DNA from: a virus
Taxonomy: Duplodnaviria; Caudoviricetes
DNA length: 64,000 nt
Reading direction: 5' to 3' (one strand)
IMG/VR virus record: IMGVR_UViG_3300028410_000746
In this document: positions 9,467 to 62,079 of the stretch, one piece after another
Numbering within the stretch: position 1 is the first letter of the stretch
Layout of the letters: every line of letters starts with the position of its first letter
Notes under the pieces: model-generated
What the model was told of the DNA's origin: nothing
Databases searched by the model: none
Seen by the model: the letters and a program-made list of their open reading frames with translations, nothing else
Position numbers and translations under genes: made by a program

Positions 9467-9961
9467 CTACTCATCGTCAGTCTCCGAGGGGGCATGTTCG
9501 GCACACCGTCGACTGAACCAGCTACCCTCATAGACACCCTCGGCGCCCATCTTACCACAGACCTGACAGGTGACGTGACTCACACGCTCCGCAAGGTCCA
9601 CGTAGTGGTCTACCTTGTTAGGCCCATTCATGGTGTAGAACCGCAGCTCGCCCCACTTCTCCTTGACCTGCATGACCACGAAGCCCTCGAAGGGATCGGT
9701 GGGGTACTGCGCAAAGTAGCGCTCAATCCACTCGCAGTCTGCAAGCTCTCCCACGGTGGTGACCCCTTGTTTGACGAAGAGATCGTCGCGGATGTCACAC
9801 ACCTCCGGCCACCTCTTGGCAGCGTGCGAGATCTGATCCAGCAAGGCCTCCACGAGAGGCTCCCAGCCCTCGGGGACGCTGAAGTCAAACGCATCTTTGA
9901 GAAAGGCATGTTTTGCGAACATGCGCTCCCACCACTTCTTCTCTTCTGAACTGTCACTCAT
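9467..9961 (-). CDS. Conserved phage hypothetical protein (QVKEKWGELRFY...CQVCG family)
   Basis: Family motif as recalled; RBS GGAG; true start MSDSSE, the longer track ORF reads through CRISPR array 1. Confidence 0.65.
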   Translation of the reverse strand: MSDSSEEKKWWERMFAKHAFLKDAFDFSVPEGWEPLVEALLDQISHAAKRWPEVCDIRDDLFVKQGVTTVGELADCEWIERYFAQYPTDPFEGFVVMQVKEKWGELRFYTMNGPNKVDHYVDLAERVSHVTCQVCGKMGAEGVYEGSWFSRRCAEHAPSETDDE

Positions 9962-9978: not shown

Positions 9979-10068
9979 GGGGACATCCCCGCTCGCGCGG
10001 GGAACACCGCAGGTAGTGGGCCTCGTCGCAGATGATGACCGGAACATCCCCGCTCGCGCGGGGAACAC
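9979..10068 (-). CRISPR. Type I-E mini-array 1 (2 repeats, 1 spacer)
   Basis: 29-nt repeats GTGTTCCCCGCGCGAGCGGGGATGT(T/C)CC(G/C) at 10040-10068 and 9979-10007; 32-nt spacer; AT-richer leader to the right. Confidence 0.9.
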
Positions 10069-10345
10069 TCTTCAAATGTTCAGTATACCTAACTCCTTGA
10101 TTCATAAGAGGAATCCTGTTGGCATAGGGTGCGTCGGTTTACTTTACCAAATCGTACCCTGTGGTACAAGCTCCCAAGAGCGACTAAGCGGACCTTACTA
10201 CAAGCTCTCTCCGGCTGTCAAGAGGTTTGCAGCTCTTTCCACATGCGGTACATGTGGGCGCGGATGCGGTCATAAGAGTCCGTGTCGCCTTTTTGAGCGA
10301 TGCCGCGACCCTGGAGCGTGAGGAACACCTCTCCAAAAGCCTCAT

Positions 10346-10498
10346 GGGGACATCCCCGCGTACACGGGGAAGGGGTCCAGGTCAGGCACACGGGCCGTAC
10401 GGGAGTGGGGACATCCCCGCGTACACGGGGAAGGGTGCTACTAGACTCCGGGGTGCATGGCGGTGCGCAGGGGACATCCCCGCGTACACGGGGAAGGG
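10346..10498 (-). CRISPR. Type I-E-like array 2 (3 repeats, 2 spacers)
   Basis: Repeat CCCTTCCCCGTGTACGCGGGGATGTCCCC at 10346, 10407 and 10470; spacers 32 and 34 nt. The G-U in the stem supports minus-strand transcription. Confidence 0.92.
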
Positions 10499-11982: not shown

Positions 11983-12011
11983 AGGGACATCCCCGCGCGT
12001 GCGGGGAAGGG
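11983..12011 (-). CRISPR. Solitary type I-E repeat
   Basis: CCCTTCCCCGCACGCGCGGGGATGTCCCT; no second repeat one spacer away on either side. Confidence 0.8.
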
Positions 12012-19741: not shown

Positions 19742-19814
19742 TAGTCACGATGGGACTCGAACCCATACACGGGGATTTAGAATCCCCTGCTCTAACCCGT
19801 TGAGCTACACGACT
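19742..19814 (-). tRNA. tRNA-Sup(CUA), amber suppressor, copy 1
   Basis: Cloverleaf; anticodon arm GGGGA-TT CTA AA-TCCCC; A73; no encoded CCA. Confidence 0.9.
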
Positions 19815-39466: not shown

Positions 39467-39983
39467 GGGGACATCCCCGCGTGTGCGGGGAGGGGTTGAC
39501 CGAGCACTGCTTCAGGTTGTCGATGTGGGGGACATCCCCGCGTACACGGGGAGGGGAAAACTTCTCCTGGGGGGTCTCTGCGGGCGCGGGGGACATCCCC
39601 GCGTGTGCGGGGAGGGGTTCCATCACTGCGCAGGAGCCGATGGCGGCGACGGGACATCCCCGCGTGTGCGGGGAGGGGTGCGCGACACAAGTCGTACATA
39701 AGCTCATTGCGGGGACATCCCCGCGTGTGCGGGGAGGGGTGACTCCGAGACCTCCGAGAGTGAGTCGCCGAGGGGACATCCCCGCGTGTGCGGGGAGGGG
39801 AAGCACGTCCGCGTCGGGCTGGTCAAAGCCAAGGGGACATCCCCGCGTGTGCGGGGAGGGGCCCGTCGTCTGGACCGCCGCTGACCTTATGGAGGGGACA
39901 TCCCCGCGTGTGCGGGGAGGGGAACTCATGGCGAGATGGTCTCCCAGGTCATACGGGGACATCCCCGCGTGTGCGGGGAGGGG
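39467..39983 (-). CRISPR. Type I-E-like array 3 (9 repeats, 8 spacers)
   Basis: 29-nt repeat CCCCTCCCCGCACACGCGGGGATGTCCCC every 61 nt (39467, 39528, 39589, 39650, 39711, 39772, 39833, 39894, 39955); all spacers 32 nt. Confidence 0.97.
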
Positions 39984-42789: not shown

Positions 42790-42863
42790 TGCGCCGAGTG
42801 GGGCTCGAACCCACAACACGGGGATTTAGAATCCCCTGCTCTAACCCGTTGAGCTATCGGCGC
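42790..42863 (-). tRNA. tRNA-Sup(CUA), amber suppressor, copy 2
   Basis: Perfect 7-bp acceptor GCGCCGA/TCGGCGC; same D and anticodon arms as copy 1; A73. Confidence 0.92.
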
Positions 42864-43995: not shown

Positions 43996-44024
43996 CGGAA
44001 CATCCCCGCGTGTGCGGGGAAGGG
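43996..44024 (-). CRISPR. Solitary type I-E repeat with a full leader
   Basis: CCCTTCCCCGCACACGCGGGGATGTTCCG; no neighbouring repeat. Confidence 0.85.
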
Positions 44025-58322: not shown

Positions 58323-58633
58323 TGCGCAAACCATGGGTGTGCCGTGACTCCCCGACCGCCGCAGTCGTCACATGGAGGATGAGAATAGAGAACCCCCTCG
58401 CCGCCACACGCGCCACACTCAAGGTCGTAGAGGACCCCTTGGTAGTCACACCTCGCGCAGCCGTCCGGATCTTCCCCGTCTCCTTCCCCTCCGCAGGCCG
58501 GACACGGAATCTCTTCCAGGAAGCCATCCCCCCGACAGACCTCGCACTCGGTCTCCAGGAGGAGATCCTTTCGGACCCCCTCCATCATACAGACCTCGCA
58601 CTCGACGAGCATTGTGGGAGGCATGGGACTCAT
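58319..58633 (-). CDS. DnaJ-type CxxCxGxG Zn-finger protein
   Basis: Multiple CxxCxGxG repeats. Confidence 0.7.
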   Translation of the reverse strand: MSPMPPTMLVECEVCMMEGVRKDLLLETECEVCRGDGFLEEIPCPACGGEGDGEDPDGCARCDYQGVLYDLECGACGGEGVLYSHPPCDDCGGRGVTAHPWFAQ

Positions 58634-61600
58634 ACAGACGGCTCCTGGACGAAGGGCTCGGTCACCGGGAGAGCCTTGGTCCAGTCACGAAGAACGTCTC
58701 GGAACACCAGCGGCGGAATCTGCTCCACGCGGTCCACCGGGTAGAACGTCATTTCGCTGAGCACCAGGGCGTCCACGTCACGCAGGTCCTTGGTACACTG
58801 CGAGGGCATGATGACCTCACGGATGCCCGCGCGATGCGCGGCGATGACCTTCTCCTTGATGCCGCCGACCGGGAGCACCTGACCCGTGAGCGTAATCTCA
58901 CCGGTCATGGCCACCTCTCGGCGCAGCTTGAGCCCCGCGAAGCGAGAGAGCAAGGCGCTGAACATCGTGATGCCTGCGGAGGGACCATCCTTGGGGATGG
59001 CGCCAGCCGGCACGTGGATGTGAAGGTCGTGCGACTTGATCATGTTGGTGTCTACTCCATACAGATCGCCATGCGCACGCAGGTAGCTCAGGGCAGCCCG
59101 GACAGACTCCTTCATGACGTCTCCGAGCTGGCCCGTCAGCGTCACCTCACCCTTACCCCCTTTCATCGCCTGCACCTCAATGAAGAGGATGTCTCCACCT
59201 ACCGCCGTCCAGGCCAAGCCCGTTGCCACGCCCTCCTGATCCTCACGCTGCGACACCTCCGAGATGTACCGAACGGGACCCAGCGCCTTCTCGACCCGCC
59301 CCATGTCCAGGGGGAACACCGCACCGAGACGCTCAGCCTCCGGAAGCTTGACGACATCCACAGCGATAGAGCGGCACAGGTCTCCCAGCCTACGGTTCAG
59401 GCTACGGACGCCCGCCTCACGGGTGTACTTGTCCACCACGTGGTGGACCACCCCATCCGCGACCTCGATCTGGTCGGGCCCCAGACCGTGGGCGGCTACC
59501 TGCTTGGGGAAGAGATAGCGAGTCGCGATCTCATTCTTCTCGAACATCGTGTAGCTGGGGACCTCCAGGATCTCCATACGGTCACGCAGCGGAGCCGAGA
59601 TCGTATCCAACCGGTTGGCCGTGGCGATGAAGAGGACCTTGGACAGGTCAAGGTCTATCTCCAGGTAGTGGTCGTTGAACGTCGAGTTCTGAGCCGGATC
59701 AAGAACCTCCAGGAACGCGGCGGCGGGGTCGCCTCGGAAGTCCGAGCCCACCTTGTCGATCTCGTCCAGGAGGATGACCGGGTTCATCGTGCCGGCCTTC
59801 TGAAGCGCTCGAACGATGCGGCCCGGCATGGCGCCCACATAGGTACGACGGTGACCACGGATCTCGGACTCGTCGTGCATACCTCCAAGGGAGATGCGCG
59901 CGAACTTGCGGCCCATCGTCCGGGCAATGGACTTGGCGATGGACGTGTTATGCGTCACAATCACGTCATCAGTGATGTAAAGAGAATCAGGAGCAGAGAC
60001 CTTGATGCACTGAGTCTCCTTGACACCTACCGCTACGATATCAGAGATGAACCTCTTGGGAGCGTACTTACTCTTGGAGACCCACCGCTGAGCTTTGGCG
60101 TCACACCAGAAGGGACACTGACCCGCCGACATTGAGACCGTCACGTTGTACGCCAGACGACCCGAACGCCTCTCCCCATCAACCGTATATGACGGCTTTT
60201 TCATCGTCACCCGTGTCACCCCCCCAAGCGACCGGACCAACCACTGCACGTCATCACACAATCGCGTCGACGTCGTACAAAAAGAAACCCTACAACCCGT
60301 CGCGTCTACAGTACCGCCAGTGTCCATCAAGCCCTGCAAAAGAGCGAGCCTCTGCTCTACCGAGCCGTAAAGGTACACATAAGGTACATGCTTTTCGTAC
60401 GAGTAGAGCCCCGTAAGTTCCAGAGCATCCAGCTCCACCTGCAACGCGTCCCGTACAGACCCCTTTCGCCCTGCGGTCAAACGATAGTCACAGGTCTCCG
60501 ACGCTTGCTTGCGCATCCGAACCTCCCCCGGCAAGGCGGCAGCTACGCGTGCGCAAATATCACCCTCTGGGTTTGAAAAACCAACGGAAGCTCCCGTAAG
60601 GCCTCCATCTCCCAAGAGCGCCCCCAAGAGGTACGGGTCAAGGGGTACGGACTTTTCCGCAAACTCCAAGGGCTGGGTCAGAGGGATAGAATGGTTGCGG
60701 CGAGCGTCCGAGCCGTACCGAAGCGTCTCTCGGATTTGCTCCAGAGACTTCACCGACCCCTCACGGGAAGCCTTCCGATCGAGGTCGGTATGCGTGTACC
60801 ACAAGTGCTCGTCGCAACACTCTGTTGATGAGCCGTCTTGAAACTCCACACGATACACCGGCCGCGTGCCTTGAGGGAACGCGCCCTCCACGTGATGAAC
60901 GCCCCCGTCCGCACCCATGACCGCATCACCTACCGCAAGCGTACCCATCGCAACCCAACCCTTCGGGGTCAACACCCGCGCATCCAAAGGCTGCGCCTTG
61001 CCCACACCGGGAGGGCCCACGAAGCACAGGATCGGGCCGTTCATGTCCTGCTTGAGCGCCTGAACAGCCAGATGCTCGACCACCCTTCGCTTCACCTTCT
61101 CCAGGCCGTAGTGGTCCGCGTCGAGCACATCCTCCGCGCGGACGACATCCAGGTTGTCCTCGCTCTCGACGCCCCACGGCACATCGAGCATCTGCTGGAT
61201 GTAGTTGAGCGTCACCGAATACTCGGAGCTGGCCGGCTGCATCGCGTCGAGTCGACGATGCTGCTTCAGGACCGCAGCCTCCACCTCCTCAGGCATGTCT
61301 GCCTCCTGAATACGCTCAAGCAGCTCCTCCGTCTCGGAGATGTCCTCACCGAGCTGGTCCTTGATGACCTTGAGCTGCTGGCGAAGGATGTACTCACGCT
61401 GAATAGACTTGCTGCGCTCCTGGAGCGACTGGTTGATCTCACCCGCCAGCTCCTGGCGCGCGATACGCTCCCCCAGGATGCGCAGACACCGAGACGCGCG
61501 CTCCGTGATGTTCGGCTCCAGGTAGAGAGCCAACAGGTCCTCATCCTCGAAGCGGGGCGCGAGCATGTCTGTAAGGTCTGAGAGGGAGCCCACAGCACGC

Positions 61601-62079
61601 ACGCGCTCGAACTCCTGCTCGGGAGCGTCCGGATCGTCTCCCAGGACCTGAAGCGTCTTCTCCTGAAGCGCCTCGAACAGCGCTTCATTGTACTCCGCCT
61701 CCTTGTCGAACTCCGGTCCAATGACCTCGAAGTGACCCATCAACGGCGCGGAGGCATCCTCCGGAATCTCAAGATCCAGGAGCCTCAGCCTCACCTCCCC
61801 GGAAGAAATGACCGTATAGTCGTTCGCGTTCGGGTTCGGGATGATCTTGATGCAGGACACCAGGGTCGCGATCTCGTGGACCTCATCCATCGAGGACAGC
61901 GTGAGCACGTCCGGAGACTTCTGAAGCACGACCGCGATCTTGAAAGGCGCCGGCGAGTCTGCACCCTCAATGACCGCCAGGGAGCGTGCTCGACCGACCC
62001 GAACAGGGATCATCTGTAGCGGGAAAAGAGGGTTCTCGCGCATGGCGATCACGGGAAGGTACAGGGTGTCAGCGCTCAT
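58630..62079 (-). CDS. lon: ATP-dependent Lon protease containing an intein
   Basis: LON N-domain, GPPGVGK|T, LLDEIDK, DGPSAG catalytic Ser, IGGIKEK-type VGGIKEK. Confidence 0.97.
59947..60996 (-). mobile_element. Class-3 intein (350 aa) with a LAGLIDADG domain in the Lon P-loop
   Basis: Starts AQPLD, ends VTHN before Thr+1; WCT signature (HLW, TQC, VTHN). Confidence 0.92.

Follow-up and report, generated by a model that had tools for sequence, protein, structure and literature searches.

Compact CRISPR arrays have been described in huge phages, in most cases without adaptation genes and in some with repeats like those of hosts; their spacers are directed at other phages (Al-Shayeb et al. 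2020, Nature 578:425, PMC7162821). Archaeal viruses carry mini-arrays, each made of a leader and 1-2 spacers against other viruses, which have been read as a device for superinfection exclusion (Medvedeva et al. 2019, Nat Commun 10:5204, PMC6858448); for mini-arrays in phages, that paper cites Faure et al. 2019. Here we describe a mini-array in a 64-kb stretch of DNA (the window, meaning the whole stretch that was analysed) from a ~373-kb lake-water phage, the carrier, whose contig is 373,477 bp long. It is probably a type I-E unit in working format that supplies this phage with a guide against the helicase gene of a separate ~43-kb tailed phage.

Like the arrays of the huge phages described by Al-Shayeb et al. 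(PMC7162821), those of the carrier are compact, sit on a phage of >200 kb and target another phage. They differ in their subtype (I-E), in being many small scattered units with two repeat classes and hybrids between them, and in that five spacers can be assigned to one ~43-kb rival with an AAN PAM. With the mini-arrays of Medvedeva et al. (PMC6858448), the locus shares the low number of spacers (1-2), a promoter-bearing leader (here putative), cell-like repeats and another virus as the target. Those mini-arrays, however, are found in archaeal viruses without cas genes and are aimed at close relatives of their own carriers, whereas the carrier here is a huge bacteriophage and its target an unrelated small phage that shares only spacer DNA with it. 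Compared with canonical type I-E systems (the E. coli K-12 type, and those of Pseudoclavibacter, Gordonia and Corynebacterium vitaeruminis), the mini-array has the same 28+1-nt repeat, hairpin and 32-nt spacer, an AAG PAM, a PAM-derived last repeat base and a similar leader-repeat junction; unlike them, it is phage-borne, carries only one spacer, lacks cas genes within 64 kb and lies in the 5' region of an unrelated operon. The principle of phage-versus-phage CRISPR is already published and we claim no new mechanism. What is new is a defined carrier-target pair, with five spacers, an AAN PAM and mixed repeat classes.

Anatomy of the mini-array

The first-pass annotation had placed a mini-array at 9979-10068, with a 32-nt spacer reading VIICDEAHYL. 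The coordinates were exact, and the translation is that of frame 1 (Table 1). The layout of 29 + 32 + 29 nt is the repeat/spacer geometry of type I-E. Both repeats start with GTGTTCCCCGCGCGAGCGGGGATGT, and they differ from each other at 2 positions. Their core occurs at exactly 2 sites in the 64 kb, where 0.00 were expected (none in 100 shuffles). Both repeats form a type I-E hairpin (-15.1 kcal/mol each), in which a GC stem of 7 bp is closed by a tetraloop and followed by an 8-nt tail, and the fold string ....(((((((....)))))))....... has the register found in all other repeats of the window. Repeat 2 is a hybrid, joining the body of repeat 1 to a 3' end that is typical of the window's other arrays. 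Repeat 1 would supply the 8-nt 5' handle (AUGUUCCG) of the predicted crRNA, and its last base, G, is also the third PAM base of the A1 protospacer, so that the match extends to 33 nt. Rfam reported no CRISPR repeat family.

The putative promoter ahead of the leader (10221-10192) has a TTGACA-N18-TAnnnT form like that of the promoter of the neighbouring array (10638-10609), and was rejected by a strict consensus scan. The leader-repeat junction (GAAGA/GTGTTCC, with the slash at the boundary) is common to the mini-array and the type I-E arrays of Gordonia and Pseudoclavibacter; beyond the junction, we found no longer homology between the mini-array leader and the leaders of these two. On the other side of the array, the start codon of a 164-aa gene lies 17 nt past the terminal repeat, on the same strand and with no terminator between them, so the mini-array sits in the 5' untranslated region of this gene. 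The gene has no relatives in IMG/VR, and its only protein relative (31% identity), encoded by an unrelated ~43-kb phage, is uninformative on the array.

Table 1. Features of the carrier discussed here, with positions in the 64-kb window.
Feature	Position	Strand	Remarks
Mini-array (repeat, 32-nt spacer, repeat)	9979-10068	minus	Type I-E form
Repeat 1, leader-proximal, 29 nt	10040-10068	minus	GTGTTCCCCGCGCGAGCGGGGATGTTCCG; ends TCCG
Spacer A1, 32 nt	10008-10039	minus	Guide against helicase DEAH box of target phage; frame 1 = VIICDEAHYL
Repeat 2, terminal, 29 nt	9979-10007	minus	Body of repeat 1, 3' end ATGTCCCC; ends CCCC
Leader of mini-array	10069-10191	minus	48% GC vs about 60% in window; GAAGA abuts repeat 1
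Probable promoter of mini-array	10192-10221	minus	TTGACA (10221-10216), 18 nt, TAAGGT (10197-10192); read by eye, inferred
164-aa orphan gene	9467-9961	minus	Function unassigned; no Pfam family; called in three other assemblies
3-repeat array	10346-10498	minus	Repeat CCCTTCCCCGTGTACGCGGGGATGTCCCC; two spacers; promoter 10638-10609
Solitary repeat	11983-12011	minus	Heads AlkB-like operon
9-repeat array	39467-39983	minus	Repeat CCCCTCCCCGCACACGCGGGGATGTCCCC; 8 spacers of 32 nt
Spacer C8, 9-repeat array	39496-39527	minus	301-aa HNH/HTH gene of target; PAM AAT
Spacer C3, 9-repeat array	39801-39832	minus	59-aa early gene of target; PAM AAC
Spacer C2, 9-repeat array	39862-39893	minus	DUF5906 primase-like gene of target; PAM AAC
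Solitary repeat	43996-44024	minus	Large-array body, 3' end ATGTTCCG of mini-array repeat 1 (reciprocal hybrid)
Fifth spacer			Source run only, outside window; polA gene of target; PAM AAT; 0 mismatches in 7 contigs

The mini-array and its spacer were found letter for letter in three assemblies (JGI 3300012271, JGI 3300039191 and Logan SRR6185438). The last of these is the probable source run and hence not independent, which leaves two other samples. Every copy of the mini-array that we saw has the one unchanged spacer, so nothing indicates that this site is still acquiring spacers. Among GenBank phages, nothing matched the 3.1-kb region around the mini-array.

The surrounding window holds 15 tRNA genes, mostly orphan genes and no cas gene. 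Two of the tRNA genes (19742-19814 and 42790-42863) have the anticodon CUA and would be amber readers. Directly after the 3-repeat array, a start-less frame on the minus strand (10218-10345) resembles the C-terminal ~40 residues of a protein (…GRGIAQKGDTDSYDRIRAHMYRMWKELQTS, stop), which gives the impression that the array was inserted into a gene or arrived there by recombination. In the 3-repeat array, the spacer next to the leader (10436-10469) is 34 nt long, while all other spacers in the window have 32 nt. Within the 9-repeat array, two repeats are variants (39650-39678, 39528-39556): one ends in G instead of C, and another has a GTGTAC loop, which is the loop of the 3-repeat array, instead of GCACAC. 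Given such variants, the arrays look like mosaics.

The spacer matches the helicase gene of another phage

A helicase gene of a competing phage or mobile element had been proposed as the likely target of A1, and this was borne out. We scanned metagenome contigs for the spacer with a pattern that left free the five positions not read by Cascade, and found two contigs, both matching at 32/32 with AAG directly ahead. In all 10 distinct metagenome contigs of one tailed phage of ~43 kb, the protospacer matches at 32/32 beside a 5'-AAG PAM, which answers the suggestion that the PAM be inspected. The search of IMG/VR that had also been suggested gave no match, exact or wobble-degenerate; it was the metagenome contigs that held the 32/32 match in a helicase gene. 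Against GenBank phages there was no full match, only partial similarities of 24-28 nt to the DEAH boxes of unrelated phage helicases. A1 has no self-match within the window, where the best other site has 11 mismatches.

The protospacer lies inside a helicase ORF that reads ...RPKVIICDEAHYLRSSD... at this point, and it covers the DEAH-box (motif II) codons. The ORF encodes an 859-aa SF2 helicase, in which the DEAH box is followed by SGT and QxxGRxxR motifs, and lies at 5709-8288 of contig L001; the called gene is one residue shorter than the ORF from the first ATG. A LAGLIDADG intein interrupts the Walker A motif (GxGK, intein, T). The description of the spacer as motif II of an SF2 helicase therefore stands, while the label "SNF2-like" applies only loosely: among intein-free relatives of the helicase, ResIII was the sole Pfam helicase family over the cut-off, with DEAD and SNF2-rel_dom sub-threshold. 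The closest homologue among GenBank phages carries the annotation chromatin-remodelling ATPase, and solved structures include no sequence relative. The helicase protein is identical on at least 24 contigs. The intein itself appears to begin with Ala, and it is 33% identical over 386 aa to an intein (59935-61086) in the Lon protease gene of the carrier (58630-62079).

The longest record of the target phage has 42,904 bp (~42.9 kb) and 68.9% GC; the target record was inspected from 4,648 to 42,904. It encodes a terminase, Portal_Mu and a cement-like protein, has a block of large genes of tail type, and further encodes polA, a primase-like DUF5906 protein, a PD-(D/E)XK nuclease and an HNH/HTH protein. 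Its closest GenBank relative, an uncultured Caudoviricetes genome of 48.5 kb, shares the helicase-polA order and about 29% amino-acid identity. The phage was seen in dozens of assemblies. Nucleotide similarity between target and window is confined to the spacers. Judged from its sequence, the target is an autonomous tailed phage that is unrelated to the carrier.

Reach of the A1 guide

The peptide PKVIICDEAHYLR is kept in helicase relatives down to 47% identity. Two related phages, whose helicases are 70% and 63% identical to that of the target, retain the AAG PAM of the protospacer and show 6 and 5 differences in it, respectively, all at synonymous third positions. The A1 protospacer begins on a codon boundary, and its positions 6, 12, 18, 24 and 30 are all wobble bases. 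These same five positions are not read by E. coli Cascade. Only positions 9 and 21 would count in the 63% relative, both of them outside the seed. Such codon phasing would arise by accident one time in three, and so we give it as an observation only.

Further spacers of the carrier converge on the same phage

All 11 spacers of the window were compared with the contigs of the target phage, and three spacers of the 9-repeat array (C2, C3 and C8) also matched it. C2 matches 2 target contigs without mismatch and 4 others with 3 mismatches (positions 5, 9 and 12). C3 has 2 mismatches (positions 3 and 6) in 5 contigs, and C8 has 2 (positions 8 and 29) in 4 contigs. These mismatches mostly include a seed position (5, 3 and 8, respectively), and the mismatched sites indicate that the rival population holds alleles that differ there. 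Of the three changes in the C2 protospacer, two are non-synonymous. The two alleles of this protospacer (L022:8100-8131 and L021:5314-5345) read AADLMEF, which is the perfect match, and AAELLEF, which differs at 5, 9 and 12. The protospacer of A1, in the helicase motif, is invariant in every target copy seen. The two spacers of the 3-repeat array found no target among the target-phage contigs tested. C6 shares an 18-nt run with the target and has 10 mismatches overall; it was not counted.

A fifth spacer against this phage came from the source run. It lies on a repeat-spacer-repeat piece flanked by the carrier's repeats, at a depth of 17.2 as against 17.4 for the mini-array contig. The repeat after this spacer combines the body of the other repeat class with the 3' end of the mini-array type.

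The five protospacers all fall within 29.6-42.2 kb of the target, in its replication/early region. PAM positions -3 and -2 are AA in 5/5 (AAG, AAC, AAC, AAT and AAT), which gives a PAM of AAN; in a 69%-GC target, we put the chance of this shared AA at about 1e-8, a rough estimate from base composition. In 3/5 cases, the third PAM base recurs as the final base of the upstream repeat, a feature of type I-E acquisition. That one phage is hit by five independent spacers implies that the two met repeatedly. The sample identifiers found for the carrier and for the target phage do not overlap. Contigs of four lake-water runs aligned to the target only at the spacers and in short mismatched scraps, and are uninformative on its presence.

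Two repeat classes, one set of arrays

It had been noted that the arrays at 10346-10498 and 39467-39983 have a repeat and leader unlike those of the mini-array, and we agree: these two arrays share one leader, which also precedes the solitary repeat at 43996, and the mini-array has another. Comparing the mini-array repeat with host-type arrays, another check suggested by the first-pass annotation, was informative as well. Its first 28 nt are identical to the type I-E repeats of two MAGs (Pseudoclavibacter and Gordonia), and 27/28 are shared with the repeat of Corynebacterium vitaeruminis. All three bacterial loci encode Cas6e (PF08798, E 1e-56 to 1e-63) no more than about 1.4 kb from the array. 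A search of 401 genomes of that actinobacterial order did not recover the core of the other repeat class, and neither repeat core had a match in IMG/VR. We found no match to either phage among the spacers of the Corynebacterium, Pseudoclavibacter and Gordonia arrays.

Hybrid repeats were found in both directions: the terminal repeat of the mini-array (9979-10007) on one side, and the solitary repeat at 43996-44024 and the repeat after the polA spacer on the other. The same 7-bp stem and tetraloop occur in both classes and in all of their variants. A 437-kb relative of the carrier has a GTGTT-type array of 5-6 repeats at the position that matches the solitary repeat at 11983-12011, and the leader ahead of these GTGTT-type repeats is of the TGTGAC...CAGA kind, the type of the carrier's other arrays. 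In this relative (Ga0232646_1000001, L042:711-1033), the array is flanked by a 566-aa gene and the AlkB-like operon and comprises five repeats of the type GTGTTCCCCGCG(C/T)ATGCGGGGATGG plus a decayed sixth, with a TTGACA promoter of its own. Its spacers gave no match to the 43-kb target phage.

It had been suggested that the differing repeats and leaders reflect two borrowed host I-E systems. The evidence does not favour this: both classes target one phage, obey one PAM rule (AAN) and form the same hairpin, hybrids join them, and the 437-kb relative mixes the types. We conclude from these sequence comparisons that the classes are probably variant forms in a single set carried by the phage, and that the same Cas proteins most likely serve both. 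Since both classes behave as one set, the carrier's own Cas proteins would be the most likely effectors.

Discussion

We propose that the mini-array would be transcribed from the minus strand and that Cas6e would then cut at its two repeat hairpins, releasing one 61-nt crRNA. Loaded into a type I-E Cascade, this crRNA would pair with the DEAH-box codons of the helicase gene beside the 5'-AAG PAM, and Cas3 would degrade the ~43-kb, 69%-GC phage genome, leaving the cell that the huge phage has infected closed to the smaller one. The mini-array would belong to a set of dispersed arrays, in which at least four other spacers appear to be aimed at the replication/early region of the same rival.

The main question on the Cas proteins is whether those of a host might serve the mini-array. 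It would then be a host-format unit, captured by recombination or kept as a landing site for Cas1-Cas2, and the other arrays would use the carrier's divergent Cascade. This would account for a repeat 1 whose first 28 nt are those of Pseudoclavibacter and Gordonia (and, at 27/28, of Corynebacterium vitaeruminis), for the leader-repeat junction in common with bacterial arrays, and for the absence of the other class's core from the 401 genomes of the order and from IMG/VR; the canonical AAG PAM and the PAM-derived last repeat base are also as in bacterial I-E acquisition. It fits poorly, however, with two repeat classes that target the same phage through the same AAN PAM, with hybrid repeats in both directions, with one hairpin in all repeat variants, and with the 437-kb relative, in which GTGTT-type repeats stand behind the phage's own leader type. 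Moreover, the three bacterial arrays have no spacer against the carrier or its target, and these species are candidate hosts at best. We therefore consider service by host proteins unlikely.

Other readings would give the mini-array a role apart from its guide, or no present role. It might be mainly an RNA-processing or regulatory element, where cuts by Cas6e trim or stabilise the 5' end of the mRNA of the 164-aa gene and the spacer is incidental. The position of the terminal repeat, 17 nt ahead of the start codon on the same strand and without a terminator, is suggestive of this, as is the fact that the repeats at 11983-12011 and 43996-44024 also head operons. A mere processing site would not be expected to hold a 32-nt spacer of full length whose target in a rival is perfect and flanked by a PAM, and we think it quite unlikely that processing is the main role, although the two roles are compatible with each other. 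Alternatively, the repeats could act as an RNA anti-CRISPR (a Racr-like decoy) that soaks up Cas6e or Cascade subunits of the host and thereby protects the huge phage. In favour of this, the repeat is identical to bacterial I-E repeats; solitary repeats and mini-arrays of phages have also reportedly been put forward as candidate RNA anti-CRISPRs, in work said to be that of Camara-Wilpert et al. 2023. Such a decoy would be a repeat mimic without a functional guide; what we found is normal geometry (29-nt repeats around a full-length 32-nt spacer), an exact target with the correct PAM, and membership of a five-spacer set against one phage, all of which make a decoy highly improbable. As for an inert relic, a fragment of an array no longer in use, one could point to the single spacer, unchanged in all copies seen, and to the altered terminal repeat. 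Both hairpins are nevertheless intact, a leader and a promoter-like site are present, and A1 still matches all sampled copies of the target perfectly, in contrast to other spacers, for which mismatched alleles already exist, so we rate disuse as very unlikely. The reading that we prefer is still a guide-bearing unit of the huge phage.

One tentative idea, which we put forward with low confidence, concerns where the guides come from. A carrier with its own Cascade and Cas3, and without Cas1-Cas2, may keep one leader-repeat unit in host format as an entry point for the adaptation enzymes of its host, and recombination between repeats may then spread guides among its divergent arrays. The reciprocal hybrids (9979-10007, 43996-44024 and the repeat after the polA spacer) would be traces of such exchange, and a codon-phased guide would reach phages with helicases only 63% identical.

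The two phages are both uncultured, and are linked by five independent spacers, some of which meet mismatched alleles of the rival, whereas the spacer against the helicase motif does not. This ~373-kb/~43-kb pair is a concrete test case for phage-versus-phage CRISPR warfare, and can show how a phage without adaptation genes gets and keeps its guides.
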